Source: an uncultured virus (IMG/VR IMGVR_UViG_3300032116_000047)
Lineage: Duplodnaviria > Heunggongvirae > Uroviricota > Caudoviricetes
DNA length: 56,391 nucleotides
Direction: 5' to 3' (one strand)
Virus record (IMG/VR): IMGVR_UViG_3300032116_000047
The notes under the pieces were generated by a model. That model was not told the DNA's origin and did no database searches. It saw only the letters and a program-made list of their open reading frames with translations. Both the position numbers and the translations under genes were made by a program. Shown piece after piece: positions 1,713-53,234 of this stretch; position 1 is the stretch's first letter; every line of letters starts with the position of its first letter.

Positions 1713-1826
1713 TTACTTACTAAAAATTTTAGCAATTTTTTTCATTCTTATAAATTTCTTAGGTGGATAGTATGTTGAAATATCTACTTCTTTTACATAA
1801 ACACCTGGTGATACATATTTAGTCAT
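1713..1826 (-). CDS. 37-aa microprotein: tail-sheath N-terminal motif plus RxxKI tag
   Basis: Manual translation MTKYVSPGVYVKEVDISTYYPPKKFIRMKKIAKIFSK. The start overlaps the upstream gene's stop, and SPGVYVKEVD matches the myovirus sheath N-terminus. Confidence 0.75.
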   Translation of the reverse strand: MTKYVSPGVYVKEVDISTYYPPKKFIRMKKIAKIFSK

Positions 1827-2325
1827 TTGATTTCTTTTTATTTTTTTTACCAGCTCTTCTTGTTTTTTTATGAGTTTCTACTTTACTATCACCATATTTA
1901 AAATCTAAATAAAACAATTGATTAGAAGGTGCAGAAAGAGGTTGAAGTCCCTTTTTCATTAGTTCTTTATATCCAGGGTCATCCTCTAACTTCTTTTCAA
2001 CAAATTCCCCGCCTTCAATAATTGCATCAATTTTTCCATCACGATTTTCAGATTGAACTTTACTTTTTACTTCGTTAATTTCTTCTTCTGAATCAAAACA
2101 TAAATCCATAGCTATTGTTTTTGCGGCTACTTTCATAGCCATAGGTAAAATGTTAGGAAATTCAGGTGTAGTGTTTTCAGTCGCTGAAGTATTCTCTTCC
2201 AGTATTTGATTAGATTGATTTTCTACTAATTGCTCAATATTACCCCAATGTGAGTTTGTGAGGCCAGATTTTTCTAAAATAGATGACCATTTATTTATTA
2301 AATCTTCTTTTGAAGGCTTATTCAT
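1819..2325 (-). CDS. truncated gp23-like major capsid protein paralog with inserted RxxKI tag
   Basis: LINKWSSILE, ILPMAMKVAAKTIAMDL and QPLSAPSNQLFYLDFKYG resemble gp23-family N-terminal blocks. Only 168 aa; insert contains NRDGKIDAII; basic tail. Confidence 0.7.
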   Translation of the reverse strand: MNKPSKEDLINKWSSILEKSGLTNSHWGNIEQLVENQSNQILEENTSATENTTPEFPNILPMAMKVAAKTIAMDLCFDSEEEINEVKSKVQSENRDGKIDAIIEGGEFVEKKLEDDPGYKELMKKGLQPLSAPSNQLFYLDFKYGDSKVETHKKTRRAGKKNKKKSND

Positions 2326-2357
2326 TGAATTAAATTTTCTTTCTTATATAAGAAAAT

Positions 2358-2693
2358 TTAATAGTTGTTTGGATCAATTCCCGGATATTCTTTTAATATT
2401 CTATCAGATAATTTAATTCTTTGATCTTCGGTAAGTTCTTTTTTAAATTCTTTTTCGTACCAATCTATCAATTGATCAATTACAACTTCTTCAGCCTCTC
2501 CAGAGGCGTTATCATAATACCAATCAACTTTTCCCTCATAACTATCTCCAATCTGTTCTTCTTCAACCCAGTTTTCAATTTCATCATCAACCATGTTCTT
2601 AACATCATACTCTGTATAAAAATGTTTGATTTTTGCGATTGCAAAGTCTGGATCAAAATCTATAAAATTCTCGTATGTTTTAACTAACTTCAT
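2358..2693 (-). CDS. acidic hypothetical protein, putative internal head protein
   Basis: N-terminus MKLVKTYENF (CTS-like). Confidence 0.7.
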   Translation of the reverse strand: MKLVKTYENFIDFDPDFAIAKIKHFYTEYDVKNMVDDEIENWVEEEQIGDSYEGKVDWYYDNASGEAEEVVIDQLIDWYEKEFKKELTEDQRIKLSDRILKEYPGIDPNNY

Positions 2694-3463
2694 AAACCAA
2701 AAAATTCTTTTAGTGAGGTTAAAAATCCTCTGATTTGAGATTTTTCTTCTTCAGTACCTTCTGATAAAATCTCTTGAAAAATTTCTGTAGATTCAACCCA
2801 TTTATATGCTGATAATTTATCAACATATTCAAAATTTTCAATTTTTTTCCCAATATATTTTTCTAAATCTTTTTGTAATCCTTCAGGATGTTCCCATCTT
2901 GTGAAAATATCATCCTCTTCATCCTCAGTCCAATCATTTAATGTTTTTTCAAATTTATCATCATCAAAAAAATCATCTAATAATTTAGATGATTTTTCAT
3001 CTTCAACATAAACCCAACTATCATCACATCTATCTAAAATATGTTGAGACTCTTTATCTAAATATGAGATATTTTTTTCATTCTTATCTCTAACAGCGGC
3101 TCTAAGACTACCAATACAATCATCAAAAATTCCAAAAATTGAATAGTCATATCCACTCGAAATACCAAATTTATTATCATTGTATAGTCTACTTTCAAAT
3201 TTCTCAACTAAATCACAAAAGTCTTCAGTCATAAGACGACCATTAGCTATAATACTATCAATCATTGACTTTAATTCAGATTGCAATTCTTCACTTTTAA
3301 CTATTTTATCATCGTTATAGTAGTGTTTTTCATGCACTTCAATTGTCTTATTGATAGCTTGTTTCATTTTACCAACAGCAGCTAAAAAATCAAATTCTAA
3401 ATCATCATTTTGAGATTTAGAATTTCTTCCCCAGAATTCTTCATATATTTTAATTATTCTCAT
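2690..3463 (-). CDS. acidic hypothetical protein, putative internal head protein
   Basis: N-terminus MRIIKIYEEF; TAATATATA just upstream (3468-3476). Confidence 0.75.
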   Translation of the reverse strand: MRIIKIYEEFWGRNSKSQNDDLEFDFLAAVGKMKQAINKTIEVHEKHYYNDDKIVKSEELQSELKSMIDSIIANGRLMTEDFCDLVEKFESRLYNDNKFGISSGYDYSIFGIFDDCIGSLRAAVRDKNEKNISYLDKESQHILDRCDDSWVYVEDEKSSKLLDDFFDDDKFEKTLNDWTEDEEDDIFTRWEHPEGLQKDLEKYIGKKIENFEYVDKLSAYKWVESTEIFQEILSEGTEEEKSQIRGFLTSLKEFFGL

Positions 3464-3473
3464 ATATTATATA

Positions 3474-4478
3474 TTATTTAAGTTTAATGTGAATGTATAG
3501 CCAAAATGATTCAGGTTTTACACTAATAAGTATTTTACTACCCCATTTTTTTGACATTAACCAATTTGTAAAATTATTTTTAATATTTTGATATTCACCC
3601 TCATCTAACTTTCCATTATCCCAACGACCTACACCATAAAATCCAAAAGTCATAACTCTATCTCTTAACATAGGTTTTAATCTTTTCTCAAAATAACCCG
3701 GTGAAAAAGAAACCATATCTCTTTTAATTTGACCTAAAGTGAGTAAATCAGAGTAATTAAGATTAACTATTTCTTTCTTAAGTGATTGAGCTGACTTAGA
3801 CTCTAAACTTAACATCCATTTTATAACAGATTGTGATAATTTGAATTGACCTATCGGGAATCTTTGTTCATAACTAATTCCGTATTCAAATTGACCTGAT
3901 ATATTTACTCCAAAATACAGATTTAAATTATTTTGTTGATAGTCAATTAAGTGTAAATATCTTTGCAAAGATTTAAATCTTGAAAATATTTGTTTTACAA
4001 CATCAGACTCTAAATTTAAAAATTGATAATAAAGAAGAAATTCATCAGGACACAATTCCCAATTCGGATTTGATTCTTTGAGACCAAGCGCTGTCAAACA
4101 TTTAAGAAAAGAGGTAAAAATTCCTTTACCAGCAACAGTAACTTCAGTTTGAACATCAACCGATTCTCCTAAAAGTTCCGATGTATCGGTCGAAGAGATC
4201 ATAACGGGTTCTTTATCTTCTATTCCAGACTCTAAATATTTATCTATTTGTAATTTTATTTCACTTTGAGTCTTTTCGTCTAATAGATTAATTGCGTTTG
4301 AAAGTCTAATTGTTGGATTTATATCATCTCCGTTATAAAGATTTTGAGTATCATCAATATAACGATTTACAATATTCATAACATATTCATCACCTGACAA
4401 AGATTCTATCCATTCACCTAATGAATTAAAATCTTCAGAAGATTCTTTAATGAATTCTAAATATTTTTTAATTATCAT
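3474..4478 (-). CDS. hypothetical protein, putative virion protein
   Basis: N-terminus MIIKKYLEFIKES; TAATATATA at 4483-4491. Confidence 0.75.
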   Translation of the reverse strand: MIIKKYLEFIKESSEDFNSLGEWIESLSGDEYVMNIVNRYIDDTQNLYNGDDINPTIRLSNAINLLDEKTQSEIKLQIDKYLESGIEDKEPVMISSTDTSELLGESVDVQTEVTVAGKGIFTSFLKCLTALGLKESNPNWELCPDEFLLYYQFLNLESDVVKQIFSRFKSLQRYLHLIDYQQNNLNLYFGVNISGQFEYGISYEQRFPIGQFKLSQSVIKWMLSLESKSAQSLKKEIVNLNYSDLLTLGQIKRDMVSFSPGYFEKRLKPMLRDRVMTFGFYGVGRWDNGKLDEGEYQNIKNNFTNWLMSKKWGSKILISVKPESFWLYIHIKLK

Positions 4479-4482
4479 AAGG

Positions 4483-4520: not shown

Positions 4521-4524
4521 AGAG

Positions 4525-5715
4525 ATGAACGGATTAAAAATTGGCATTACTTTAGGTTTAAAATCAAATACAGAGTCAATATGGACAAATGGGATTAAGC
4601 AAAATGTTTTGATGTTACATCATCTACTTAAAAAGTCAAATAATCAATATGAAGTAAAAATTTTAAATACAATTAAGGTAGATTGGTCAACAAAACCACA
4701 GTATTTAAAAGATATTGATATATGTTATTTTGATGAAGCCTACGAGGAAATGGATTTAATCATTATAATGGGTGCTCAAGCAGAACCTGAAAAGATAAAA
4801 AAATTTAAATTAATTAAAAGTGATAATAAAGTAATCAGTTATAAATGCGGAAGTAATTATATTCTAACAACTGAAAGTGTTCTTTTTGGAACAGAAGATA
4901 AATGGTGTCAATATGAAGATTATTTTGATGAAGTTTGGTACATTCCACAACAACATGAAACTTGTAATGGTTACTTTCACACACTTTATAGAACAAATGT
5001 TGTTACGGTTCCTTTTATTTGGCATCATAAGTTTTTAACAGAAGCTATTATTGACATCGAAAAAGGTTATAAATTAGGTAAGTTTAAAAAAGGATTTCAA
5101 TATAATCCTGAAAAAGATAAAAAAGTATTGGGCATAATGGAACCTAATTTAAATTTGGTTAAATTTTGTTTAATTCCAACAATGGTTGCTGAAGAATCTT
5201 ATAGAGGTAAAATCGGTAAAGAAAAGATTTCAAAATTAATGATTACTAACTCAAAAGATGTTTCTAAACATAAGGAATTTCTAAGTATATTGAAGACTTT
5301 TGATTTATATAAGGAGGGAAAGATAACTGCTGAGAGTAGATACCAAACTTCTTACATAGTTACTCAATATTTAGATATTTTAATTTGTCATCAGATATTA
5401 AATCCACTAAACTATCTTTATTTGGATGTTGCTTTTATGGGTTATCCGGTTTTACATAATGCACCAATGTGTAAAGATATTGGATATTATTATGAAGGAT
5501 CAGATACTGTTGATGGGGCTAAAATGTTAGATTGGATTTTAGAAAATCATGATAATAATTTAAAAGAATATGAAGAGAGAAATAAAAAAGCTCTTTTCAG
5601 ATACTTTGCAGATAATAGAACTTTAATAGAAGCCTATGATATGTTAATCCATAACTTATTTAATGATGGAAATATAGGATTAGAGTATGATGAAACTACA
5701 AATAACTACAAATAA
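4525..5715 (+). CDS. DUF2827-like protein, probable GT-B glycosyltransferase
   Basis: KIGIT...SIWTNGIKQN, DEVWYIPQ, IMEPNLNLVKFCLIP, HQILNPLNYLYLD...GYPVLHN match my recollection of the DUF2827 pattern. Transferase function is inference. Confidence 0.7.
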   Translation: MNGLKIGITLGLKSNTESIWTNGIKQNVLMLHHLLKKSNNQYEVKILNTIKVDWSTKPQYLKDIDICYFDEAYEEMDLIIIMGAQAEPEKIKKFKLIKSDNKVISYKCGSNYILTTESVLFGTEDKWCQYEDYFDEVWYIPQQHETCNGYFHTLYRTNVVTVPFIWHHKFLTEAIIDIEKGYKLGKFKKGFQYNPEKDKKVLGIMEPNLNLVKFCLIPTMVAEESYRGKIGKEKISKLMITNSKDVSKHKEFLSILKTFDLYKEGKITAESRYQTSYIVTQYLDILICHQILNPLNYLYLDVAFMGYPVLHNAPMCKDIGYYYEGSDTVDGAKMLDWILENHDNNLKEYEERNKKALFRYFADNRTLIEAYDMLIHNLFNDGNIGLEYDETTNNYK

Positions 5716-5766: not shown

Positions 5767-8700
5767 TTATTTCAAATTTGCTTTACCATCATCATAAGTT
5801 CCCATTATCTTAGCAATTGATACAGAACAAAGTTCAGCATATCTATTCAAAGATATATATCTACTTCTTTGAGACTCCGTAAATACAATATCACTTAGTT
5901 TATATCCTTCTCCACTTCTGTAATAATTAAAGAACGTATTGAAATTATCTACTTCAGGATAATAATCTACATGAGCATTCAATAAATACCATTTATTATT
6001 GATATTTACTTTTACCCACTGCTCAAGAACTTCGGTAGTTTCTTCACACTCTGATCCATCTAATATATCACATATAGATTTGATAATAGCGTTAAATACT
6101 TCCCAGTCTTTTGTATTAGAAGATGTTTTTGGATAATTCGTCTTTAATGAATTGATTGTGTTAAATATTGAACCAACCATCAATGAACCTTTAGACCATG
6201 AAGAATCATAAGGAACTCCATCACCGTCATCAAACACATAAGCTGATCTTGAATAATCCTCAAGTTCTCCAGTAAATAGATTATTGATTTCATCAATATC
6301 ATCAACTAATGTGGAAATATTATCAACTAAATCATCACTATAAACATAATTATCAGTAATTCCAGTCACATTAAGATAATACGGTTCAGATACCCAACGA
6401 TGTGTAGAACCATTATCAACTTTGAAAGATGAAGCTACTGTCGCATTAAATAAACCTTGCTCATTAGCTCTTTTCAGTGTTAGATATTGAGAAACTACAT
6501 CTACATCTGTTGCATAGTTTTCTTTAGAGAAATTTACAACTGCTCCAACTGGTTGCCCAGTTGAGTCAATTTCTTGACGAGTGTAGGATAATCCACCACC
6601 CATTCCGTTTTCTGTCCAAGAAAGGAATTTCATTCTGTAGAATTTATTATCCTGAACATCATGTAAAATCATTTCTTTACCAACAGATGTAGGTGGATTC
6701 CAATCAACAGAATCAGCCCAATTAACCATCAATGATGTGTTAAACTCAGATGGATTAAATGTATTCCACAAGTTCTCAACCCAATAATCATAAGGAGACA
6801 CTAAATCACTGTAAGTTGACTTAAAGAATTTTCTTAGAGATGCTCCAGTTGCCCAATCACGACCATTTTGCCATCCATAATAGTCATAAAAGAACACATC
6901 TTTATCAGATATCGTTAATTCATATTTTATTTTTGAATCTAAAACATAGTTTTTGAAATCTTTAGTTATTTGTTCTTCATTTACAGGAACAGTTATTGTG
7001 TATGACCATTCATTAGTTTCGGAAGATTGTGTCCAAGTCACATACTTTAAGTTGAAGAATCTGATTAAAGACGCTCTCTCTCCCATATTATCACTAGACC
7101 AATAAATTACCCAATCAGACACACCACCAGATGTAGGATTAGTCATATCTTGTAATCTACTATTATTTAACGGATTAATGAAGTTATTTGCGGACCAAGT
7201 ACCATCTCCATTATCAACTAATATAGACTTAAAGAAAGTTAAAATTGGATCTACTATTGACCAGTCCCAACCTTGTGAATTTCTACAATAATTTAACAAA
7301 TCATTTGTTGCCCATATAGCTGTGTTATTATATAATTCTCTCATTTTAGATAAGTATCCACCTAACTCAAGACCTGACCACATTGCTTTATCACCATCCC
7401 AAGATGAATTTGCCCAATCATTTATCAATCTATGTAATTCAGTGTAAGTTAAATTATTTAAATCTAAACTTTCTGTAGTAACGGTTCCTTCATTTGAAAA
7501 TAAAGAAAGATATGATTGATCATTTTTAAAAGTGTCTAAAATTTCACCTCTAATAAAAGTAACCTTATTATCTAAATAATTCTCAATATCAGAAATTAAT
7601 CCAATTCTTGTAATTGGATCAAAAAACACAGGAATATTATTTGAATAATAAAATATTCTTTCTTTGTATTTATCAAACAACACATCAAATGTATAAGGAT
7701 TCTCAAAGTTTACTACATCATCATACTGAGGAAGTTTGTATTCAGATTTTATTGCCATTTCAACTAGTTGAGCTCCTTTTAAGATAACATTTGAAAAATC
7801 AGAAATATACTGACCGAAAGAAGAATGAACTGTTGCTAATTTTGATAAAGAATCATTAAAATACTTTATAATCTCAGAATATAACTTAGATTTCAATGAA
7901 AAATCTAAATAAGTCTCTTCAGAATAAAATAAGTCTGATAATAACCTTATAATTGGCTTCTCAAATGAGCTTAAACTTTTTAATCTAATTATAGCATAAA
8001 GAGATTCAGGAGAATATGACACAAATTTTCCAGAAAAGTTTAATACTATACCACTTGTAGAAGTTTGAATTGTTTGTTCTTGCATTTTGAGGTAATTCAA
8101 GTCAAAATTTAGAACTCTTGAAAGGCTATAAAGATAGTCTTGTAAATTAGAAATAGAACTTACAAAGTTTGTTGGAACAATATGACTAACTGACAATAAT
8201 GAATTCAATACACTTTGTATAACAGAAGATTCTGTTTCACTTGATACTTCTGTTATTTTTAAATTTATAGTTCCAGCATATGGATCATTTGTAGTCACCT
8301 CATCATTAACTTGATAATTTTGACCTTGATCTATTAGAGTGTAATTTGAAATATTTCCAATAGAATCAAAAGTGGCTTGAAATGTTAAATGAGCACCTAT
8401 TCCAGTTGTGATGGATTGTGAGAATTCAACTGTTTGATTCGCATAAGCCTCCATTGGAAAAGAATTCCCAACTTCATCAAAACTCAATGATAAAACGTGA
8501 TTAGGTTTATTTACCTCAATATATTTCAAACTATCTGAAATCTTTTCATATATTTTAGTTAAATTTGACAATTCACCAAAAGAATTAACTTTAAAAGATG
8601 AACTTCCTGATGATTTTGTATTAAAGTTCAGAGTTATTCCATTTTCACCAATTATATCATCATAAATAGATTGTAAAACCAATTCTTCATCTGTCTTACT

Positions 8701-9798
8701 TTGTAATAAAGAAATTATATCAGAGACGTTTTCTGATAATGCGCCATTTTCATACACATATTTCTTAAAGAAATAATTTTCAGATACTGTAGATACTCTA
8801 GACTTTATAATAAGAGACTTAAGATATTCTTTAGCTAGTGTATAAGAAGCTTCACCTGAAGGATCAAATTCTTGTCTAATATAAGTGTATTGAATAGGAA
8901 GACCAATCATTCTATTATTTCTAATATTTGACTTACTCTTAACAATAACTCTATAATAAGTAAAAGACTCTTTCTGAATTGAATCTGCAAAATTTGTTGA
9001 AGGAACTCTAAAAACAATTTCAGAATTTTTCATTTCAGCATCAGCGTCCTTAAACATTTCTAAAAAATTCATAGACCATACTCTAAAGTCAGAACCGATA
9101 TTTTCCCATCCTATAGACCACTCAATTTTAGATCCATCTTGTACTGAGTTTGATATCTCACCAGTCTCAGTGTCAATAGATAATTCTAAATCTTCACTGA
9201 TAACGTCATTTAATTGACCATTAAGTGTGAATTCAACTACACTTGGTTCTGATTCTAAATAGTTTTCTAACATTAAGTAAGAACCATTGAAGTTTCTATC
9301 TAAAAGTGTAGATAATAACCTTTCTGAATCTAAAGAAATCTCACTAACACTTTCTACGAATCTTGAATCTGTTATAGTTTTTAAATAGTTCTCTTGATAA
9401 GGAGATAGTCTACCTGCAGCGGTTTTATAAGTATCAATTGCTATTTGTAGATCAGTAGCATCTTCAAATGATTTTTTTGTTAATAGTAGTTCAGCCTCTT
9501 CTTTACCAGGTAAAGTAACTCCAAGTTCAGAAACGACTGATTCTAAACCATCAACTCTACCTCTAACAATAGCAGATTCTTTTTCAAACTCACTAACAGT
9601 AGCTGAAACGTCATTTATAGCATCTGCTAAAGATGTGAAATTTCCTTCAAATTCATCAACTGATAAAGGCCTGTTTAGAGCAGAACTGTTTTCATAATTT
9701 TTTGTTTTAAGATTTAGATTAGAAATCTTTTTCTCACCTTTTGAAACACCACCTGGAAGTTCATCAGGAGACAATTGCCTTTGATTTAAATAATTCAT
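5767..9798 (-). CDS. large virion/fibre-associated protein
   Basis: 1343 aa; N-terminal RPLSVDEFEGNFTSL resembles fibre/spike attachment motifs; last gene of the fibre cluster. Confidence 0.65.
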   Translation of the reverse strand: MNYLNQRQLSPDELPGGVSKGEKKISNLNLKTKNYENSSALNRPLSVDEFEGNFTSLADAINDVSATVSEFEKESAIVRGRVDGLESVVSELGVTLPGKEEAELLLTKKSFEDATDLQIAIDTYKTAAGRLSPYQENYLKTITDSRFVESVSEISLDSERLLSTLLDRNFNGSYLMLENYLESEPSVVEFTLNGQLNDVISEDLELSIDTETGEISNSVQDGSKIEWSIGWENIGSDFRVWSMNFLEMFKDADAEMKNSEIVFRVPSTNFADSIQKESFTYYRVIVKSKSNIRNNRMIGLPIQYTYIRQEFDPSGEASYTLAKEYLKSLIIKSRVSTVSENYFFKKYVYENGALSENVSDIISLLQSKTDEELVLQSIYDDIIGENGITLNFNTKSSGSSSFKVNSFGELSNLTKIYEKISDSLKYIEVNKPNHVLSLSFDEVGNSFPMEAYANQTVEFSQSITTGIGAHLTFQATFDSIGNISNYTLIDQGQNYQVNDEVTTNDPYAGTINLKITEVSSETESSVIQSVLNSLLSVSHIVPTNFVSSISNLQDYLYSLSRVLNFDLNYLKMQEQTIQTSTSGIVLNFSGKFVSYSPESLYAIIRLKSLSSFEKPIIRLLSDLFYSEETYLDFSLKSKLYSEIIKYFNDSLSKLATVHSSFGQYISDFSNVILKGAQLVEMAIKSEYKLPQYDDVVNFENPYTFDVLFDKYKERIFYYSNNIPVFFDPITRIGLISDIENYLDNKVTFIRGEILDTFKNDQSYLSLFSNEGTVTTESLDLNNLTYTELHRLINDWANSSWDGDKAMWSGLELGGYLSKMRELYNNTAIWATNDLLNYCRNSQGWDWSIVDPILTFFKSILVDNGDGTWSANNFINPLNNSRLQDMTNPTSGGVSDWVIYWSSDNMGERASLIRFFNLKYVTWTQSSETNEWSYTITVPVNEEQITKDFKNYVLDSKIKYELTISDKDVFFYDYYGWQNGRDWATGASLRKFFKSTYSDLVSPYDYWVENLWNTFNPSEFNTSLMVNWADSVDWNPPTSVGKEMILHDVQDNKFYRMKFLSWTENGMGGGLSYTRQEIDSTGQPVGAVVNFSKENYATDVDVVSQYLTLKRANEQGLFNATVASSFKVDNGSTHRWVSEPYYLNVTGITDNYVYSDDLVDNISTLVDDIDEINNLFTGELEDYSRSAYVFDDGDGVPYDSSWSKGSLMVGSIFNTINSLKTNYPKTSSNTKDWEVFNAIIKSICDILDGSECEETTEVLEQWVKVNINNKWYLLNAHVDYYPEVDNFNTFFNYYRSGEGYKLSDIVFTESQRSRYISLNRYAELCSVSIAKIMGTYDDGKANLK

Positions 9799-10052: not shown

Positions 10053-13000
10053 TTAATCATTAGCTGTTTCAGCTGATGGATCCGTTATTTTACCAGGTTG
10101 AGTTGCTCCACCAGGTAGAGGTTCTAATACCGCTGGAGATACAAAATGAAACGCTTGAATACCCATAGTCACAACTCTATAAGAGTTAGACGCCGGAGCA
10201 TCAGCAAATTCAATTGATACACTTTGGTCGTTAACTCTAATAGACTCAGTCTCAACAGTGGCACCAGTAGTAATGTCATAGATTTGAACAATCACATCCA
10301 TAGTTCCTAAAGCGTGCTCACAAGAGAATGTAGTCTCAACACCATCACCAATTGTGAAAGCTGATACAACCGGAGTTATATTTAATCTTTCAGCAACAGT
10401 AACTTTTGTATCACTAATCTCAGCCATAACATCAACACCACCAACTTTTAAGATAGTCTCAACGTCAACTTCACCTTCAAATGTTCTGATTCCAGAAACA
10501 GGAGCCGCAATAGTCTCAGCTAAACTAATTGTGTTATCAACATCGTTAAGAACGATTGTTTTCTCATCAACAAGTGCTAATTCAGCAATTGCATCAGACA
10601 CAGTTGAAACTAACTCAGCAGATACCTCAGCGAATGAATCAAGTTCAGTCAAATCAGTATTACTTAATAAGTAAGCAACTTTGTTAGAAAGTTCAGTAGA
10701 TAATTCAACCTCAGCCTTTTCAGCTCTTTCGATTTCAGCTTTTAATGCGTCTTCTAAAGATAACTCAGCAGATGTAGCTCTCACTACTTCATTACTCAAA
10801 TCTGTTGTAGCAGCACTTGATAAGTCCTGAATAGCAGTAGTTAAGTCACTATCAGCTCCTTGGAATGCCTCAACGATTTCAGTTAATGAATCTAAAGCAG
10901 CTGGATCGATGTTAGAAATAACAGCGTCTATTCTTCTATCTAAATTATTCAAAGAATTTTTGAAATCATTAGACATGTTATTAATGTCTAATTTAACAGA
11001 CCAGTTCTTCCAAGCCTCAAAGTTTACTAAATTAGAAGGTTGGAATTCACTTTGACTTAAATAGTATTTTAATGAAGAATTCTCACTTTCTCTGTCTCTT
11101 TTTAATCCACTATAGAAATCAATAGCCTCACTGTATGAATTAAATGTATAAACACTATTATAATAAGAAGATGTCATACTAACTGGGTAAACTTCTTGTG
11201 AGAAGATTTCAGTGTTCATTAAATTCAAATCAGATAGATTATTATCTAGATTAGATTCGATGTTGGAAATGTCTGATGAAAAGTCAGAATTAATATAGTT
11301 TGTATATTCATTCCATTGACCTGTGTAGTAATTACCACCTTCTTCATAACCAACTGTAGTAATAATACTAGCCTCAGTTTCTTCAGCTCTTGAAATCTCA
11401 GCAGATAAGTCTGAATTGATTGTAGACACATTATCTGATAATAAATCCTCTAAAGAAGCCTCAGCAGCAAGTGCTCTATTTTCTTCAGCATCAACGTCAG
11501 CAACTCTATTAGCAACTTCAGAAGATAAATCATTTCTTAATACTAACTCAGCAGCAAGTGCTCTTAACTCCTCAGAGTCAACATCAGCAACTCTATCAGC
11601 AACTTCTTTAGCTAAATCAGATGCTAAACCATCCTCAGCGTTTAATGCTCTACTTTCTTCAGCTTTAACAGCGTCTTGTCTGTTAACAACCTCAGAAGAT
11701 AAAGATGATGTTAAAGAAGCCTCAGCAGCAAGTGCTCTACTTAACTCAGTAGATAAAGCGTCAGCTCTATTAACTTCCTCAGAAGATAATCTATCTGTTA
11801 AAGATTTCTCAGCAGCAGTAGCTCTACTTAATTCAGTAGATAAAGCATCAGTTCTATCAACGATTTCTCTTGATAAACCAGAAGCCAATGATAACTCAGA
11901 AGATGTAGCTCTTGAAACTTCAGATGATAAATCAGCAGCTGCAGCGTTAGATAAGTTAGTGATTGCGTTATTGATGTCTCCATCAGCAGCTTGGAATGCA
12001 GAAACGATCTCAGTTAATGAATCTAAAGCAGTTGGGTCAATGTTAGAAATAACATTGTCTAATTTATCCTCTAAAGATACTTCAGTTGAAGTAGCTCTAG
12101 CGATTTCAGAAGCTAAGCTTGTAGATAATGTAGCTTCAACAGCCATTGCTCTACTTTCTTCAGCGTTTACGTCATCAATTCTATTAGAAACCTCAGTTGA
12201 TAAATCTGAAGTTAATTTAGTCTCAGCAACGATAGCTCTTGACTCTTCAGCATCAACATCAGATGTTCTTGCAACAACTTCAGCAGAAAGTGCAGAAGTT
12301 AAAGAAGCTTCAGCAACAAGTGCTCTTGATTCTTCAGCGTCAACATCAGCGACTCTATTAGAAATCTCTGTATTTAAGTTAGATGTTAATAATGTCTCAG
12401 CAGCAGTAGCTCTTGATTGTTCAACATCAACATCAGAAATTCTTGCTGCGATTTCAGCGTTTAAGTCGTTTGTTAATTGAACCTCAGCAGCAGTAGCTCT
12501 TGATTGTTCAGCATCAACATCATTTGTTCTATTTACAATCTCTGTAGATAAGTTTGCTTTGATTAAGTCTTCAGCAGCCTTAGCTCTAGAAACTTCAGAT
12601 GATAAATCAGATGTTAATACACCTTCAGCAGCTTCAGCTCTAGAAACTTCAGATGATAAGTTAGAAGTTAATACTCCTTCAGCATACTCAGCTCTTGATT
12701 GCTCAATAGATAATTTATTTGTTAAAGATAATTCAGCAGCAATTGCTCTACTTTCTTCGTTACTTACAGCAGTTGTAGCAGCGTTAGATAAGTTAGAAAT
12801 TGCTCCATTTATATCACTATCAGCTGATTGGAATGCAGAAACGATCTCAGTTAATGAATCGATAGCAGCAGCATCAACGTTAGAGATAACGAATTCAACT
12901 TTTGTGTTTAAAGATAACTCAGCAGCAGTAGCTCTTGAAATCTCAGCAGCTAAATCAGATGTTAATACACCTTCAGCAGATTCAGCTCTCGAAATCTCAT

Positions 13001-16000
13001 CAGCAAGTGCCTCATCGTTAGAAGTAACATAAGAGTCTAATTTATTATTAAGATTAGCATCACCTGCAATTCTTGATGATTCTTCAGCACTAATAGCATC
13101 CACTCTGTTAGTAACCTCAGTTGATAATTTAGAATCTAATGAATCCTCAGCAGCGATAGCTCTTGTCTCTTCAGCATCAACATCAGCAACTCTGTTAGCA
13201 ACTTCAGATGATAAGTTAGCTCTTAATACAGACTCAGCAGTCATTGCTCTACTTTCTTCAGCATCAACGTCAGCAACTCTATTAGAAACCTCAGAAGAAA
13301 GGTCTGATCTAAGAACAGCCTCAGCAGAAAGAGCTCTTGTTTCTTCAGCATTTACGTCAGCAACTCTATCAGCAACTTCTTGAGATAAATCAGATGTTAA
13401 TTTAGCATCACCAGCAACTCTTAAAGACTCTTCAGCAGATACTGCGTCTTTTCTGTCAGCGATTTCTTTAGTTAAATCAGTAGTTAATACAGCTTCAGCA
13501 GCCATAGCTCTACTTTCTTCAGCATCAACGTCAGCAACTCTATCAGAAACTTCTTTAGTTAAATCAGATACGATTGAAGCCTCAGCAGAAGTAGCTCTAA
13601 CGATTTCAGAAGAAAGTGCAGAAGATGCACTATTTGATAAGTTAGAAATTGTGTTATTTAAGTTTCCATCAGCAGATTGGAAAGCCGCAACGATTTCAGT
13701 TAATGAATCTAATGCAGCAGAATCTGTGTTAGAAATTACATTGTTTAATTTATTCTCCAATGAAGTCTCAGTTGCAGTAGCTCTTGAAATCTCAGAAGAT
13801 AAATCACTTTTAATGATAGTCTCAACTGATTCAGCTCTTTCTTGTTCAGCATCAACATCAGCAGTTCTGTCTAAAATCTCCTTAGTCAAGTCGCTTTTAA
13901 TGATAGCCTCAACTGACTCAGCTCTTTCTTGTTCAGCATCAACATCAGCAATTCTATCAGCAACTTCTTTAGTTAAATCAGATGTCAATTTAGCTTCAGC
14001 TGATATTGCTCTACTTTCTTCAACATCAACATCAACGATACGTGCAGAAATCTCAGCATTTAAGTTAGATGTTAATAATATTTCAGCAGCAGTAGCTCTA
14101 GATTGTTCAACATCAACATCAGCAACTCTTGCAGAAATTTCAGCATTTAAATTAGTTGTTAAAATACCTTCAGCTGCAATCGCTCTTGATTCTTCAGCAT
14201 CAACATCAGCAGTTCTATTAACAACTTCAGTAGAAAGTGAGTTAGATAAAGCGGTTTCAACAGATTTTGCTCTTGTCTCTTCAGCATCAACATCAGCAGT
14301 TCTATCAGAAACTTCTTTAGCTAAATCATTAGTTAATACTAATTCAGCAGATTCAGCTCTCGCTAATTCTATTGATAAAGCATCAGCTCTGTTAGTTTCT
14401 TCAGCAGATAATCTATCAGTTAATGATAATTCAGCAGTCTCAGCTCTTAAAATTTCAGCATCTAAGTTTGTAGAAGCCGCATTTGATAAAGTAGTGATTG
14501 CGCCATTAATATCACTATCAGCATCTTGGAACGCTTTAACGATTTCAGTTAATGAATCTAATGAATCAGGAGTTACGTTTTCAGTAATATAAGAGATAGC
14601 ATCAGATAAATCAGCTTCAGCTCTTGTAGCTCTTAGAATCTCAGAAGATAAATCACTTTTAATGATAGCCTCAATTGATTCAGCTCTTACTTGCTCAGCA
14701 TCAACATCAGCAATTCTATCAGCAACTTCTTTTGCTAAATTATTAGTCAATACTAATTCAGATGATAAAGCTCTACTTTCTTCAGCATCAACATCAGCAG
14801 TTCTATTAACTACCTCTGTAGATAATGAACTTCTTAATGCAGCCTCAGCAACAAGTGCTCTACTTTCTTCAGCATCAACATCAGCAGTTCTATTAACTAC
14901 CTCTGTAGATAATGCAGCTGTTAAAACAGTCTCAGCAGATGTAGCTCTTAATTCTTCAGCATCAACATCAGCAACTCTATTTGAAACCTCTGATGATAAA
15001 TCAGATCTTAATTGAGATTCAGCAACAAGTGCTCTACTTTCTTCAGCATTAACATCAGCAATTCTATCAGCAACTTCTTGAGATAAATCAGATGTTAATT
15101 TAGCCTCAGCTGACATCGCTCTAGATTCTTCATCATCTAAGTTAGATTGTAACTCAGAATCACCCATTGAACGAGCGCTAGCCTCTAAACCTAACTCATA
15201 AGTTAGAGAAGCAGTATCTGCGTTTCTTTCAGATATTTCAACTGATAGTTTAGTAGTCAAAGACAACTCAGCAGAAGTAGCTCTGGTGATTTCATTATTC
15301 AAATCTGTTGTAGCAGCATTTGATAAGTTTGTAATTGCATTATTGATATCACCATCAGCTGATTGGAATGCGGAAACGATTTCAGTTAATGAATCAAGTG
15401 CAGCAGGATTAGTGTTAGAAATAACAAAATCAACTTTTGTGTTTAATGATAACTCAGCAGAAGTAGCTCTTAGAATTTCAGAAGACAAATCACTTTTAAT
15501 GATAGTCTCAACTGATTCAGCTCTACTTTCTTCAGCATTTACATCGGAAATTCTATCAGAAGTTTCTTTAGCTAAGTCACTTTTAATGATAGCCTCAACT
15601 GACTCAGCTCTTGTCTGTTCAGCATCAACATCAGCAGTTCTATTAACCACCTCTGTAGATAATGAAGCAGTTAAAACAGCTTCAGCAGACATTGCTCTTG
15701 ACTCCTCAGCATTAACATCAACTATTCTATTAGAAATTTCGTTACTTAATGCTGTTGTTAAAGAAGTCTCAGCAGCAATTGCTCTACTTTCTTCAGCATC
15801 TACGTCAGATGTTCTAGCAACTATCTCAGCTGATAAATTAGATGTTAAAACACCTTCAGCTGCGGTAGCTCTTGCTTCTTCATCATCAACATCAGCTATT
15901 CTTGCATCAGTTTCTGATGCTAAATCAGAAGCTAATTGTGATTCAGCTGCAGTAGCTCTTGCTTCTTCGTTATCAACATCAGCTATTCTAGCCGTAGTCT

Positions 16001-16367
16001 CGTTACCCAAAGCATTTGTTAGAGATAATTCAGCAGATGTAGCTCTTGCTACTTCTGTTGAAAGATTGGAACCAGCAGAACTTGCTAAGTTCTGGATTGC
16101 TCCGTTAATGTTGTCATCTGCTGATTGGAAAGCTGAAACAATTTCCGACAAAGAATCTAAAGCATCGGGACTAGTGTTTGATAGAACATTTTCTATCAAT
16201 CCATCTAATCTATCAACTTCAGAGCTAAGTTCAGAGCTAGTTTCGGCGATTAAACCAGTAACGAATTCTTTGTTCGCCACATCAGTTCCTTCCACAGGAG
16301 CTGCAACATTTTTAATTAGATTTAGATCTAAGTCTAAATCCACCAAAAATTTTTTACTTTTACCCAT
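10053..16367 (-). CDS. giant alpha-helical coiled-coil fibre protein
   Basis: 2104 aa of E-x-x-R-A-x-x-A-E repeats punctuated by 7 (L/I)DSL(T/S)EIVxAF motifs (fibre LDTLxEL-type), plus a C-terminal GDG...H.LGT.DV.VQ(I)YD beta domain. Confidence 0.85.
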   Translation of the reverse strand: MGKSKKFLVDLDLDLNLIKNVAAPVEGTDVANKEFVTGLIAETSSELSSEVDRLDGLIENVLSNTSPDALDSLSEIVSAFQSADDNINGAIQNLASSAGSNLSTEVARATSAELSLTNALGNETTARIADVDNEEARATAAESQLASDLASETDARIADVDDEEARATAAEGVLTSNLSAEIVARTSDVDAEESRAIAAETSLTTALSNEISNRIVDVNAEESRAMSAEAVLTASLSTEVVNRTADVDAEQTRAESVEAIIKSDLAKETSDRISDVNAEESRAESVETIIKSDLSSEILRATSAELSLNTKVDFVISNTNPAALDSLTEIVSAFQSADGDINNAITNLSNAATTDLNNEITRATSAELSLTTKLSVEISERNADTASLTYELGLEASARSMGDSELQSNLDDEESRAMSAEAKLTSDLSQEVADRIADVNAEESRALVAESQLRSDLSSEVSNRVADVDAEELRATSAETVLTAALSTEVVNRTADVDAEESRALVAEAALRSSLSTEVVNRTADVDAEESRALSSELVLTNNLAKEVADRIADVDAEQVRAESIEAIIKSDLSSEILRATRAEADLSDAISYITENVTPDSLDSLTEIVKAFQDADSDINGAITTLSNAASTNLDAEILRAETAELSLTDRLSAEETNRADALSIELARAESAELVLTNDLAKEVSDRTADVDAEETRAKSVETALSNSLSTEVVNRTADVDAEESRAIAAEGILTTNLNAEISARVADVDVEQSRATAAEILLTSNLNAEISARIVDVDVEESRAISAEAKLTSDLTKEVADRIADVDAEQERAESVEAIIKSDLTKEILDRTADVDAEQERAESVETIIKSDLSSEISRATATETSLENKLNNVISNTDSAALDSLTEIVAAFQSADGNLNNTISNLSNSASSALSSEIVRATSAEASIVSDLTKEVSDRVADVDAEESRAMAAEAVLTTDLTKEIADRKDAVSAEESLRVAGDAKLTSDLSQEVADRVADVNAEETRALSAEAVLRSDLSSEVSNRVADVDAEESRAMTAESVLRANLSSEVANRVADVDAEETRAIAAEDSLDSKLSTEVTNRVDAISAEESSRIAGDANLNNKLDSYVTSNDEALADEISRAESAEGVLTSDLAAEISRATAAELSLNTKVEFVISNVDAAAIDSLTEIVSAFQSADSDINGAISNLSNAATTAVSNEESRAIAAELSLTNKLSIEQSRAEYAEGVLTSNLSSEVSRAEAAEGVLTSDLSSEVSRAKAAEDLIKANLSTEIVNRTNDVDAEQSRATAAEVQLTNDLNAEIAARISDVDVEQSRATAAETLLTSNLNTEISNRVADVDAEESRALVAEASLTSALSAEVVARTSDVDAEESRAIVAETKLTSDLSTEVSNRIDDVNAEESRAMAVEATLSTSLASEIARATSTEVSLEDKLDNVISNIDPTALDSLTEIVSAFQAADGDINNAITNLSNAAAADLSSEVSRATSSELSLASGLSREIVDRTDALSTELSRATAAEKSLTDRLSSEEVNRADALSTELSRALAAEASLTSSLSSEVVNRQDAVKAEESRALNAEDGLASDLAKEVADRVADVDSEELRALAAELVLRNDLSSEVANRVADVDAEENRALAAEASLEDLLSDNVSTINSDLSAEISRAEETEASIITTVGYEEGGNYYTGQWNEYTNYINSDFSSDISNIESNLDNNLSDLNLMNTEIFSQEVYPVSMTSSYYNSVYTFNSYSEAIDFYSGLKRDRESENSSLKYYLSQSEFQPSNLVNFEAWKNWSVKLDINNMSNDFKNSLNNLDRRIDAVISNIDPAALDSLTEIVEAFQGADSDLTTAIQDLSSAATTDLSNEVVRATSAELSLEDALKAEIERAEKAEVELSTELSNKVAYLLSNTDLTELDSFAEVSAELVSTVSDAIAELALVDEKTIVLNDVDNTISLAETIAAPVSGIRTFEGEVDVETILKVGGVDVMAEISDTKVTVAERLNITPVVSAFTIGDGVETTFSCEHALGTMDVIVQIYDITTGATVETESIRVNDQSVSIEFADAPASNSYRVVTMGIQAFHFVSPAVLEPLPGGATQPGKITDPSAETAND
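10700..16160 (-). repeat. degenerate ~29-codon (11+18 aa) coding repeats
   Basis: For example STEVVNRTADVDAEESRALVAEAALRSSL, reiterated; DNA motif tcttcagcatcaacatcagc recurs many times. Confidence 0.85.
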
Positions 16368-20174: not shown

Positions 20175-20197
20175 TATATTCTATATATTTTTAATTT

Positions 20198-46866: not shown

Positions 46867-47292
46867 TTAGTCTTTACCAATAACTGAATCAATTTTTTCC
46901 AATCTTTTTATAACTCCACTATAATTAGAAACTTCTTCAGCTAACTTCTCACACTCAGAAATTACATACTCTTTCGTTCGATAGATGCCATCAAAATGTG
47001 GAAAGGATGGACAAAGATCACCTGCATGAGCACAATCAAAACCAATAATCCATCCACCATCTCCTTCATCCGAATAGGTTAATCCACCATGTACATGAAC
47101 ATTAATTTTTGAATATAGTTTATCGTAATCTAAACCATAAAGTTTATTATCCGATGTCAAAACAACATAACCACATAGAGCTTGAGATGTATTTCTTCTT
47201 ATGCAACATTCAACTTCTAATCCGTTTTTAGCGCTATAAGTCCAATCGTGATAATCACCTTCAGATTTTATTATTTCATTAATATTTTTCAT
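46867..47292 (-). CDS. conserved phage protein (CGYV / HGGLTY / GFDCAH family) with C-terminal RxxKI tag
   Basis: LCGYV, VHGGLTYS, WIIGFDCAHAGD; ends KRLEKIDSVIG. Confidence 0.8.
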   Translation of the reverse strand: MKNINEIIKSEGDYHDWTYSAKNGLEVECCIRRNTSQALCGYVVLTSDNKLYGLDYDKLYSKINVHVHGGLTYSDEGDGGWIIGFDCAHAGDLCPSFPHFDGIYRTKEYVISECEKLAEEVSNYSGVIKRLEKIDSVIGKD

Positions 47293-49328: not shown

Positions 49329-49347
49329 AGAAAGTATATATTAAATA

Positions 49348-49737
49348 TCAGAATAATTTTCTAAATAAACTATTCAATTTAGCTTCTCTTATTTCACTTT
49401 TATCTAATTGTAATTCAGAAAATTCAAAATAGACTATAAGTGTCATACAAGGTATCAAATATAAACAAAAACTAAATAAGTCACCAAAAAATATTGAAAA
49501 AACTATATTAAAACCAAAAATCTTTTCTGTAAAATATATTATTGTAAGATTTATTACAATACATATCATAGATACTAAAAACATCTGTTGTTTATCTCTA
49601 CTGGTAAAGTCATCATGATAAATAAAAAGAAATGGAAAAAAAGGCACAAACGAGCCAATAAAAGATAGCATAGTAGAAGATCTTAAAATCTCTAACCAAC
49701 TATTTCTTAAAACTTTTCTTAATTTATAAAAAAACAT
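49348..49737 (-). CDS. membrane protein with C-terminal RxxKL tag
   Basis: About three hydrophobic segments; ends IREAKLNSLFRKLF. Confidence 0.7.
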   Translation of the reverse strand: MFFYKLRKVLRNSWLEILRSSTMLSFIGSFVPFFPFLFIYHDDFTSRDKQQMFLVSMICIVINLTIIYFTEKIFGFNIVFSIFFGDLFSFCLYLIPCMTLIVYFEFSELQLDKSEIREAKLNSLFRKLF

Positions 49738-50078
49738 TATTGTAAAATATCTTTAATTTTTTCATCTCTCATATATTGATTTATCGTATCTGGAAATTTA
49801 TTAAAAGAGCCTTTAATAAAACTCAAAAACAATTCTAACTGAAAGTCATTCTCATCTCCAAATGTTTTAAGACTAAAGTTTCCAAATTTTTTACCAGATT
49901 GCATGTTACTCCACATTCTGATTTCTTGTAGTTGAAAAAGACCTAAGTTATCATCTATATTTATATTGAGGTAATTATTTTCTATATCAGTTTTTATACT
50001 GAATAAATTAGGTTTTTCTGACCAAGTCTGTGAAAATCCTAATTCTTTAACTAAATCTATGAAATCTTGTTTTGTCAT
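49737..50078 (-). CDS. hypothetical protein with C-terminal RxxKI tag
   Basis: Ends MRDEKIKDILQ. Confidence 0.7.
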   Translation of the reverse strand: MTKQDFIDLVKELGFSQTWSEKPNLFSIKTDIENNYLNINIDDNLGLFQLQEIRMWSNMQSGKKFGNFSLKTFGDENDFQLELFLSFIKGSFNKFPDTINQYMRDEKIKDILQ

Positions 50079-50644: not shown

Positions 50645-50661
50645 ATATTAAAAGGTAAATA

Positions 50662-51279: not shown

Positions 51280-51532
51280 TTAACAATTCTCTTAGTAAAA
51301 ACTCTCTATTAAGTTCTGTATTTTTTTCAAAAATCATAGAGATTTCTGATACTTTTTCACCTTCAAAATATTGATTTGAAACAGTTATTCTATATTTTGT
51401 ATTTAAGTAGAATGGATTTATATACTTTATAAGTAACATTCGAGCATTATCAATATTAGTAACATTCTCTTCAAATTGATAAGTTTTTAACTTCTTATCT
51501 TTATTCTCTAAATATAAATTAACTTCTGTCAT
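51272..51532 (-). CDS. hypothetical protein with tag-like C-terminus
   Basis: Ends NREFLLRELLND. Confidence 0.65.
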   Translation of the reverse strand: MTEVNLYLENKDKKLKTYQFEENVTNIDNARMLLIKYINPFYLNTKYRITVSNQYFEGEKVSEISMIFEKNTELNREFLLRELLND

Positions 51533-52401
51533 AGTTTAATATCTAATCCTTCTATATTCCAAATCGCCAAATCTCCATCTATTCTAAAATATAAATCTTT
51601 GATATCCAAAGGCTCTTTAAGTATATATTTTTTTAAATATATGAAATATTTATGACCGTTACAACCTGATAAATCTTTATATAAAATACTTCCTAAGTGG
51701 TTATAAAAAGTATTGACTCTAAAATCTTCAATTCTTTCTACGGTAAATATTTTATATTTAAATAAAGAAGTGTCTAATTCTGAAATAATTTTATCGATGT
51801 CTTTAAAGTCATCAAATTGATAAATAACTTCATCTGATTTAGTACAGAGTATTTTTAGATTTGAATATTGAGATATTGATTGAATTAATTCTTCAATTAT
51901 AACTCTTTGAGCTTTTATTTGTTTTTTTGGATTAAGGTTTCCAAAAATATACTGTCTAAATTGTTTTGAATTCCAAAATACAGGATGTATATTAAACTTT
52001 TCTAATAATCCATTATAAGTTTTACCTAATTCGTTTAAGAACGGTGGGTCATATTTCTTTAAAACTACCCAGTTTGCTGAATTTATATCAATTGATAAAT
52101 ACTTTTTACCCTCGGAATACTCAAAGTTTTTATTGATTGGATAATCCGGAATTAAATTATCATCATTCAACTCATTATAGGATCTTGTGGATTTTAAGAA
52201 TTCTATAATTTCATTTGATTTATCAATTTTATATTGATATGGATCTTCTACTTTAGACTCAAAATCTAAATAAATATCTATCATTTCTTTCAAATGTGAC
52301 CATCTGGGTAATTTTGAATATTGTTCGATATAATAATCAAAATGTTCATACTCTGGTACATTCAAATCAAATAATTTAACAAAAGTTCTTATATCTCTCA
52401 T
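51529..52401 (-). CDS. hypothetical protein with polymerase-palm-like motifs
   Basis: YLSIDINSANW and TKSDEVIY resemble palm motifs A and C; unconfirmed. Confidence 0.55.
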   Translation of the reverse strand: MRDIRTFVKLFDLNVPEYEHFDYYIEQYSKLPRWSHLKEMIDIYLDFESKVEDPYQYKIDKSNEIIEFLKSTRSYNELNDDNLIPDYPINKNFEYSEGKKYLSIDINSANWVVLKKYDPPFLNELGKTYNGLLEKFNIHPVFWNSKQFRQYIFGNLNPKKQIKAQRVIIEELIQSISQYSNLKILCTKSDEVIYQFDDFKDIDKIISELDTSLFKYKIFTVERIEDFRVNTFYNHLGSILYKDLSGCNGHKYFIYLKKYILKEPLDIKDLYFRIDGDLAIWNIEGLDIKL

Positions 52402-52769
52402 AAACCTAAATCTTCAATTTTCTTATCTCTTAATTTGGCCAAATCTTCGTCTTTTAAACAAATTGAAAATCCCCATTCTTCTTTGACTAACCAATGGTCA
52501 ATTATATCTGCATCAAATCCATTTTTTGTTGAATAATCCTCTTTTACAAGAGGATACTTTCCGGTATAGATACCAAAGAGCTCTGGGAATATAACAATAG
52601 ATTCAGCAGATGAAATACTTTTCCAACAATTATCAATAACTAAATCATGTATATCATATCTACCCTCAAAAAGAAATTTACCCTTATGATGAAATCTGAT
52701 ATTGACAAAGTACCTTTTAGATACTTTGTCTTTTAATCCTCTTAATTGTATGACTCTTTTATACCCCAT
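52398..52769 (-). CDS. hypothetical protein with C-terminal RxxKI tag
   Basis: Ends LRDKKIEDLGL. Confidence 0.7.
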   Translation of the reverse strand: MGYKRVIQLRGLKDKVSKRYFVNIRFHHKGKFLFEGRYDIHDLVIDNCWKSISSAESIVIFPELFGIYTGKYPLVKEDYSTKNGFDADIIDHWLVKEEWGFSICLKDEDLAKLRDKKIEDLGL

Positions 52770-53098
52770 TATACACCTAAACTATTTAATTTTTCATTTC
52801 TACGATAAGCTTTATAATCTTCTTCTTCTGTGATAAAATATTCTGACATTTCTGATTCAGTGAAATAATACAACTTTATTTTCTCACTATATGGTAAATT
52901 CCACCAATCTTTTTTACCAGAGAACGATCCATAGTATTCGTCTTCAATACAGAAACCATATCCTTTTCTACCACCAACTTCTGGATCAGCATTCCATTCT
53001 AGATTACCTCTTCCTTTGATATCATAATGACTACCAACCTTAATAGTTTTATACTCTTTAATACAAACAACCATTTGACAATCCCATTTATCTCTCAT
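52769..53098 (-). CDS. hypothetical protein with C-terminal RxxKL tag
   Basis: Ends RRNEKLNSLGV. Confidence 0.7.
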   Translation of the reverse strand: MRDKWDCQMVVCIKEYKTIKVGSHYDIKGRGNLEWNADPEVGGRKGYGFCIEDEYYGSFSGKKDWWNLPYSEKIKLYYFTESEMSEYFITEEEDYKAYRRNEKLNSLGV

Positions 53099-53234
53099 AG
53101 AATAACCTTTTAATTTTTATAACTCTATTTTGTATTTTAAAAAATCTGGTCTTTTTCTTTACCAATTCATCGTAAAGATTTCTTCCAACACCACCCATAC
53201 CATAAGAAGAGTTTAATTGTATTTTCATATCCAT
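53088..53234 (-). CDS. 48-aa microprotein: DNA polymerase B motif-B-like peptide plus RxxKI tag
   Basis: Manual translation MDMKIQLNSSYGMGGVGRNLYDELVKKKTRFFKIQNRVIKIKRLFYER; fills the gap and overlaps the start of the next gene. Confidence 0.65.
   Translation of the reverse strand: MDMKIQLNSSYGMGGVGRNLYDELVKKKTRFFKIQNRVIKIKRLFYER

Follow-up and report, generated by a model that had tools for sequence, protein, structure and literature searches.

Background

MicroProteins (miPs) of plants and animals keep one interaction segment of a larger relative and titrate that relative or its partners. The internal proteins of phage T4 carry a capsid targeting sequence at the N-terminus, and T4-like phages include split family-B DNA polymerases (PolB) of the gp43A/gp43B type. 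Here, these systems are compared with three small open reading frames (ORFs) of 37, 168, and 56 amino acids (aa), all located on the minus strand of a 56,391-nucleotide (nt) stretch of DNA from an uncultured virus (IMG/VR record IMGVR_UViG_3300032116_000047; the whole stretch is referred to as the window). Each ORF joins a segment (snippet) of a phage hallmark protein, namely the contractile tail sheath, the major capsid protein (MCP), or, with weak similarity, PolB, to the same short motif, R-x-x-K-[IL]-x-x-[IL], called the tag (BLASTP, hhalign, and PDB profile search). An earlier sequence-only reading of the window had proposed this combination, and the three ORFs with the peptides it quoted were all recovered by ORF calls and six-frame translation. 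We tentatively regard them as small functional genes built on a "snippet plus tag" principle, with confidence a little short of even.

The relation that defines microProteins, homology between a small protein and a single segment of a larger one encoded in that genome, was found here, and the short stand-alone copies are likewise conserved under selection. Unlike in microProteins, the parents are virion and replisome proteins of a phage, catalytic signatures were copied too, and a portable tag that occurs proteome-wide is shared; titration would follow by analogy only. The tag resembles the T4 capsid targeting sequence in being a short peptide common to otherwise unrelated phage proteins, and it is a candidate address label. 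Phage anti-defence decoys and sponges are small as well and work through mimicry or sequestration, of which mimicry is proposed here; the examples in the search listings mimic DNA or bind signalling nucleotides, and none listed there is a fragment of a structural or replication protein of the phage itself. Full-text searches, at the level of listings and abstracts, gave no report of fragment micro-proteins or of a tag of this kind in huge phages.

The window was assigned to a huge phage, kin of LR756502 (642 kilobases [kb]) and LR745206 (635 kb), two uncultured megaphages of 630–640 kb. According to PMC9723777, these two rank among the largest megaphages, and their sources are a freshwater lake and a subsurface sample. 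Both loci under study, the one with the MCP and sheath snippets and the one with the PolB snippet, are syntenic with these megaphages and with IMG/VR contigs that reach 483 kb. The window has approximately 29% G+C and is densely coding under translation table 11. Stop-codon recoding as the source of the short ORFs was dropped in view of this dense coding and of the other-frame gene that follows each mini-ORF.

Sheath snippet

The 37-aa micro-ORF (1713..1826, minus strand) was identified from the ORF call, synteny, and hhalign as a sheath N-terminal arm followed by a C-terminal tag, and it shares 8 nt with the 168-aa gene at the stop of the latter. The arm peptide SPGVYVKEVDIS (1776..1811, minus strand) was located by pattern search, and all family members keep its P, G, and D. 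The pattern SPG[VI][YF]..E.D occurs once in the six-frame translation of the window, against 0.0001 occurrences expected from composition. The tag RMKKIAKI (1725..1748, minus strand; R, K, and I invariant in the family) is followed by F and ends three residues before the stop. The arm signature P-G-[VI]-[YF]-x-x-E-x-D is present, and the sheath domains beyond the arm are absent.

When the family profile was compared with the first 51 residues of the megaphage sheath, they aligned over 51 columns (hhalign probability 94%, expectation value [E] 1.3e-7), and the tag fell in a 12-column gap of the genuine sheath; the tag is therefore an insertion. The true sheaths of the relatives are 1283–1295 aa long. 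An exhaustive profile search with the 37-aa family recovered 74 cluster representatives at E ≤ 0.001, of which 72 were at most 104 aa long, many of them 36–41 aa, and no full-length sheath was among the 74. Pfam gave no sheath family in nine members of the family at E ≤ 10. Of the 12 related loci examined, nine have a counterpart in the corresponding place (LR745206, L072, and L073 have none), and longer relatives of 56–66 aa run on into a second sheath-like block. As judged from the profile alignment, the snippet is genuinely derived from the sheath N-terminal arm.

In one related locus (L074, 1959..2129, plus strand), the sheath micro-ORF has the S-P-G-V-Y arm twice, one on each side of the tag. 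In the window, the overlap between the 168-aa and 37-aa ORFs (1819..1826) lies in ATGACTAA, and more than one frame is open through the A-rich run that closes the 168-aa gene. Directly downstream of the 37-aa ORF, a MUG113/T5orf172 (GIY-YIG-like) gene was found (1356..1688, minus strand; Pfam E 2e-18). A terminator-like hairpin lies just past the 37-aa ORF (1687..1707, minus strand); it is a consensus match only, of a kind found three times against 0.8 in shuffles.

Capsid snippet

The 168-aa ORF (1819..2325, minus strand) was identified as a paralogue of the N-terminal part of a T4-type MCP by the ORF call, BLASTP, hhalign, PHROG, and PDB profile searches. Its sequence corresponds to the propeptide and N-arm of the MCP and extends as far as the first conserved block. 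The N-terminal propeptide block and the Q-P-x-x-x-P-x-G-x-x-F block of the gp23 type (PF07068) were both found in it, and no Pfam Gp23 match was obtained for the ORF at E ≤ 0.01. BLASTP matched it to the LR756502 MCP with E 6e-6, and the family profile aligned with the first 107 residues of the same MCP (hhalign 98.5%, E 2e-15). The PHROG "major head protein" match (E 3.9e-7) covers profile positions 3–81 of 444 only. The sole PDB match was T4 gp23 (family structures 6uzc and others), with which the ORF shares blocks of residues 1–52 and 113–134 (E 0.019). Unlike gp23, it is devoid of the HK97-fold body (approximately 400–570 residues), and it contains an insertion of approximately 45 residues with a tag-like motif, as well as a basic tail.

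The LR745206 orthologue matches residues 8–118 of the MCP of its own phage with E 1.3e-19, and 520 homologues of 92–294 aa were found in the databases. The relatives encode full-length MCPs (560–571 aa) approximately 90 kb from the snippet locus. From these matches, the capsid snippet is taken to be genuinely derived from the MCP N-terminus. A reading of the sheath and MCP pieces as parts of intron-containing or split genes was dropped: no second exon lies nearby, and full-length genes stand elsewhere in the relatives.

The tag-like motif RDGKIDAI was located by motif scan at 2020..2043 (minus strand), in the insertion between the two capsid blocks. Across 32 sequences, this insertion holds N-R-D-G-K-I, of which N94, R95, and K98 are invariant. 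The AlphaFold2 (AF2) model of the 168-aa protein is poor (predicted local distance difference test score [pLDDT] 58), and the tag-like motif is its best-modelled part.

Polymerase snippet

The third ORF had been placed at 53088..53234 by the sequence-only reading. The ORF is present, and its start lies more likely at 53258: position 53234 corresponds to an internal Met, and 53258 is the better start because the longer N-terminus is kept in all 26 database homologues. The resulting 56-aa micro-ORF (53088..53258, minus strand) was described from the ORF call, its homologues, and an AF2 model as a PolB motif-B helix, a loop, and a long helix ending in the tag. The motif-B-like peptide KIQLNSSYG (53199..53225, minus strand) has invariant K12, N16, and Y19, with S17 and G20 conserved in at least 90%. 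The tag RVIKIKRL (53103..53126, minus strand), with invariant R45 and K48, is followed by F and ends four residues before the stop. Altogether, M1, L4, K12, N16, Y19, Y29, R45, and K48 are invariant in 29 aligned sequences of the family.

The K-x3-N-S-x-Y-G motif B of family-B polymerases (PF00136) was found in the 56-aa ORF, where motifs A and C and the palm and exonuclease domains are absent. The pattern K...NS.YG occurs once in the six-frame translation of the window, against 0.05 occurrences expected from composition. The family profile aligned over 13 columns with the motif-B block of the C-terminal half of the relatives' PolB (hhalign, single-comparison E 9e-4, probability 23%). The expectation that the three ORFs would show profile similarity to their parents was therefore upheld for the capsid and sheath snippets and only weakly for this one. 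Syntenic copies are found in L021, L022, L023/L024, and LR745206; L025 and LR756502 lack one.

AF2 predicted the 56-aa protein with confidence (pLDDT 88) as a hairpin with a helix at residues 2–17, a loop S-Y-G-M-G-G, and a second helix at residues 24–54, which is far longer than the first and carries the tag. A Foldseek search with this model returned generic helical hairpins only, with E > 2.

In this lineage, PolB is encoded by two genes approximately 100 kb apart, an N-half of 508–513 aa and a C-half of 474 aa (L027 442..1866, minus strand; L026 442..1866, minus strand; L028 385..1926, plus strand; L030 1468..2997, minus strand; identified as PolB halves). The N-half, to which 754 database proteins match at E ≤ 1e-10, carries motif A and ends in a long helix; the C-half carries motifs B and C and reaches its own motif B approximately 35 residues in, and the split lies inside the fingers. 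The arrangement resembles gp43A/gp43B in that PolB is encoded by two genes, the second starting shortly before motif B; the 56-aa ORF shares only approximately 13 columns with the PolB C-half. The possibility that the 56-aa ORF is a missing piece of PolB was ruled out, as the C-half has its own motif B. The LR756502 C-half starts with a tag-like R-D-E-K-I-K-K-I.

Conservation and selection

The sequence-only reading had expected conservation and purifying selection, and both were observed: the related huge phages keep all three families, and most ratios of non-synonymous to synonymous substitution rates (dN/dS, Nei-Gojobori) are below 1. The ratios were 0.11–0.53 in the 168-aa family (27 informative of 28 pairs), 0.12–0.85 in the 56-aa family (12 informative of 15 pairs; closest pair 0.22), and 0.29–0.96 in the 37-aa family (36 pairs; 0.40–0.76 in the four pairs with dS < 0.5); all are rough, many pairs being near saturation and the ORFs being short. 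For each of the two micro-ORF families, invariance falls on the signature residues of the parent and on R and K of the tag.

These data bear on the explanation by non-functional debris, in which a duplication or the adjacent MUG113/T5orf172 element left behind pieces that are now decaying. The ORFs are very short, a GIY-YIG-like gene stands beside the MCP/sheath-snippet locus, and RNA or protein evidence for the ORFs was not obtained, all of which would fit debris. In two metatranscriptome libraries (labelled lake water and freshwater), contigs identical to window genes were found at 2849..3031, 3701..3851, and 4015..4165, where DNA carry-over is possible; matches were confined to these neighbouring genes, and no contig of the two libraries lay on the mini-ORFs. 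Against decay, the frames are open in every related locus that holds them, hundreds of homologues have a stable length, dN/dS is well below 1 in two of the three families, the signature and tag residues are invariant, and the MUG113/T5orf172 gene is itself a conserved syntenic neighbour of the sheath micro-ORF in most relatives. The conservation data argue strongly against debris, which is considered extremely unlikely.

The shared tag

Tags were counted in a strict form (R..KI..[IL]) and a relaxed form (R..K[IL]..[ILVF]) among genes called by a simple ORF caller (58 in the window and 938 in LR745206). The strict tag occurs six times in the 58 window genes (0.5 in shuffles), four of them within eight residues of the C-terminus (0.03 expected). 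The relaxed tag occurs nine times in the window, six of them C-terminally. In LR745206, 163 relaxed tags were counted against 31 expected. C-terminal tags numbered 122, where shuffles gave 1.6 and reversed sequences 2; three tags lie in the first eight residues (1.6 expected), and 38 are internal (28 ± 5 expected). Unlike the T4 capsid targeting sequence, the tag is hence a C-terminal element, it is carried by approximately 13% of genes, and it is rare in the stretch of LR745206 at 150–250 kb, where the sheath and MCP genes lie and where tag density is lowest.

Four further window genes on the minus strand end in a tag. The gene that follows the 56-aa micro-ORF encodes a 109-aa ORFan ending in RNEKLNSL (52769..53098), a tag that its orthologues keep. 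By motif scan, tags were also found at the ends of a 123-aa ORFan (RDKKIEDL, 52398..52769), a 113-aa ORFan (RDEKIKDI, 49737..50078), and a 141-aa MazG-like protein (RLEKIDSV, 46867..47292).

Two sources of the tag other than a protein motif were rejected. One was a DNA-level signal such as a promoter or a translation-coupling site: tagged small genes of LR745206 directly adjoin or overlap the following gene in a larger share of cases than others (64/112 vs 151/510), but the tag codons for R, K, and I/L match genome-wide usage, third positions carry little information, and in 20 of 112 tagged small genes the next gene is on the other strand. The second was a large family of diverged paralogues: once stripped of the tag, 118 of 120 bodies are BLAST singletons, unrelated to one another. 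The C-terminal excess, the ordinary codon choice, the opposite-strand neighbours, and the unrelated bodies together mark the tag as a portable motif of the protein level, located C-terminally in approximately 13% of the LR745206 proteome. A specificity of the tag for bait-like ORFs was not supported, given its presence at the ends of so many unrelated bodies. Tagging is highest (28%) among LR745206 proteins of 80–120 aa. A Pfam search of 61 tagged LR745206 proteins of at least 100 aa gave one clear domain, a DNA methylase, and no functional hint.

The tag of LR745206 has two flavours, R-[KR]-x-K-I-x-x-I-[FYW] in proteins of up to 80 aa and R-[DEN]-x-K-[IL]-x-x-[IL]-[LGI] in larger ones. K or R stands at tag position 2 in 14 of 31 proteins of up to 80 aa vs none of 91 larger ones, and an aromatic residue stands at +9 in 14 of 31 vs 4 of 91. 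The two window micro-ORFs end in ...K-I-F and ...R-L-F, the aromatic form, and the 168-aa protein has the R-D-x-K-I form. The "same tag" of the sequence-only reading may therefore cover two related signals.

The distinctness of the micro-protein flavour, which presumably resembles MinD-type tails, could also point to membrane targeting: it would be an amphipathic helix at the C-terminus, as in MinD and FtsA, by which the snippets would be tethered to the inner membrane instead of to a protein reader. The motif has three hydrophobic positions only, a helical-wheel estimate made by hand puts the conserved R in the middle of the hydrophobic face, and the sheath micro-ORF runs 25–30 residues beyond the motif in several relatives. 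Membrane targeting is considered very unlikely.

Modular chaining

The modular design suggested by the sequence-only reading was found in database proteins and in relatives. In P0335, a 152-aa metagenomic database protein, a scaffold-repeat piece with a tag is followed by a sheath arm with a tag of its own; the first piece matches the repeat protein whose gene lies immediately upstream of the MCP (BLASTP E 2e-11). A 107-aa ORF of L073 joins MCP residues 327–368 (E 7e-7) to an N-R-E-G-K-I module. LR745206 holds five small ORFs with MCP pieces. It also encodes a tagged 79-aa ORF in which 10 of 11 residues are identical to motif A of its own PolB, a tagged 75-aa ORF with an MCP C-terminal piece and a second K...NS.YG match before the tag, and a tagged 53-aa ORF with a weak match to the MCP-upstream repeat protein (E 0.011 / 0.003, below the shuffle threshold). 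A BLAST search of 354 window ORFs (25–200 aa) against the large LR745206 proteins revealed no further bait-like ORF.

Two pairs of adjacent ORFs were observed in these relatives. In L073, ORFs at 1140..1463 and 1480..1809 (plus strand) contain MCP residues 327–368 and the N-arm, respectively, each with an N-R-[DE]-x-K-I-D-S-I-L module. In LR745206, two tagged micro-ORFs are adjacent at 255010..255237 and 255215..255367 (minus strand), the 75-aa one being possibly a two-snippet chimera.

The choice of parents would also be understandable if the ORFs were ordinary accessories of the virion or replisome, with the sheath-arm peptide serving as a missing donor strand at the sheath end, the MCP paralogue as a scaffold or internal head protein, and the tag as entry to the particle. 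N-terminal arms of HK97-fold capsid proteins and contractile sheaths contact neighbouring subunits or scaffold, and the copied MCP and sheath segments are such arms; moreover, the 168-aa protein retains the propeptide-like block and the basic tail. The genes are, however, outside the structural module of the relatives, approximately 90 kb from the MCP and 120 kb from the sheath gene, and are absent from some relatives. The low tag density around the sheath and MCP genes of LR745206 likewise speaks against a particle entry signal, and snippets of PolB motifs A and B are ill-suited to a role in the virion. We consider an accessory role quite unlikely.

Proposed function

For the "snippet plus tag" genes, a mode of action is proposed that goes beyond the observed homology, conservation, protein-level selection, tag portability, and modular chaining. 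Each body would be a copy of a short, highly conserved segment of a hallmark protein of the lineage itself: the MCP propeptide and N-arm, the sheath N-terminal arm, or the motif-B finger helix near the start of the second PolB half. Each also carries the portable basic-hydrophobic helix R-x-x-K-[IL]-x-x-[IL] of the lineage. The copied segment may dock where the parent segment docks, on a neighbouring subunit, a scaffold, the other polymerase half, or an epitope-recognising protein, and the shared helix may couple the resulting complex to a putative common reader. The purpose could be self-regulation of assembly and replication, sabotage of rival phages, or decoying of host sensors. The three proteins would then be microProtein-like interface mimics with a shared docking helix, a possibility that we favour while holding it to be somewhat less than probable. 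A more elaborate version, a modular epitope library (capsid, scaffold, sheath, and PolB motifs A and B) in which one helix leads to a common reader and which neutralises host sensors or sabotages rivals, is considered unlikely.

Several results weigh against the proposal of interface mimics. The binding partners of body and tag are conjectural. The PolB homology of the 56-aa family is short and weaker than that of the capsid and sheath snippets; the profile search of the PDB with this family gave no polymerase motif B match, and Pfam gave no match in the 37-aa or 56-aa ORFs or their relatives. The tag-like motif of the 168-aa protein is internal, 66 residues before the C-terminus, and internal tags in LR745206 are barely above chance. 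Constraint on the sheath micro-ORF is weak in several pairs, where dN/dS reaches its upper values, and micro-ORFs are missing from some relatives and are therefore dispensable. The genes used for the tag statistics come from a crude caller, not a trained gene finder.

The association of tags with fragments also speaks against the proposal. LR745206 has 623 genes shorter than 200 aa. A match at E ≤ 0.001 to a protein of 250 aa or more was obtained for 21 of them, mostly N-terminal-domain paralogues. The sequence-only reading had expected tags to accompany such fragments more often than chance and had named co-occurrence at chance level as grounds for refutation; 3 of these 21 fragment-like proteins are C-tagged, with no enrichment over the base rate of 113/623 (18%). 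Of 41 tagged LR745206 micro-ORFs of up to 85 aa, the body match exceeds the 99th percentile of shuffles in only two. The "bait" bodies may be an exception among tagged proteins, since the other 39 of the 41 match nothing above the shuffle level. The tag is a general label, and the hallmark snippets are a small, striking subset of the labelled proteins.

The same results can be explained if function resides in the tag alone, as a label for addressing, degradation, or docking on approximately one gene in eight, and the bodies are scraps of duplicated genes recruited as filler, a stable helix, or an arm, with residues kept for folding. This explanation accords with the proteome-wide occurrence of the tag on unrelated bodies, with its lack of enrichment on fragment-like proteins, and with the absence of a detectable parent for most tagged micro-ORFs. 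In the AF2 model, N-S-x-Y-G forms the helix end and the hairpin turn, which could account for its conservation. Against recycled bodies, the snippets come repeatedly from hallmark signatures (MCP three times, scaffold, sheath arm, and PolB motifs A and B), one protein chains two different snippets, each with its own tag, and the invariant columns coincide with the signature residues of the parents. Taken together, recycled bodies are regarded as a serious but rather doubtful alternative.

Other features of the window

T4-type functions among the window genes include an SbcC-like gp46 N-terminus, PhoH (34186..34941, plus strand), and a RecA/UvsX-like start. The auxiliary genes also include a PLP-dependent cysteine-synthase-like enzyme (53924..54796, plus strand) and DUF2827 (4525..5715, plus strand). 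A Pfam scan covered the giant ORFs and collagen-repeat proteins on the minus strand (10053..16367, 28042..33780, 5767..9798, and 18768..23644). The window ORFs of 1343–2104 aa (2104, 1912, and 1343 aa) gave no informative Pfam match, and the two collagen-repeat proteins are probably fibres.

Implications

If the proposed mode of action is correct, these ORFs would be the first phage protein-fragment mimics of the core machinery of the phage itself, organised as cassettes with a common handle. They would offer a route to what recognises the most conserved capsid, sheath, and polymerase epitopes inside the infected cell, and the tag together with its reader would provide a naturally occurring pair of peptide tag and reader. 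Some of the "dark" small genes in huge phages would also be explained. The conservative reading still leaves a C-terminal label on approximately one gene in eight of a megaphage genome, as well as conserved micro-genes below gene-calling size, neither of which was found described in any paper.

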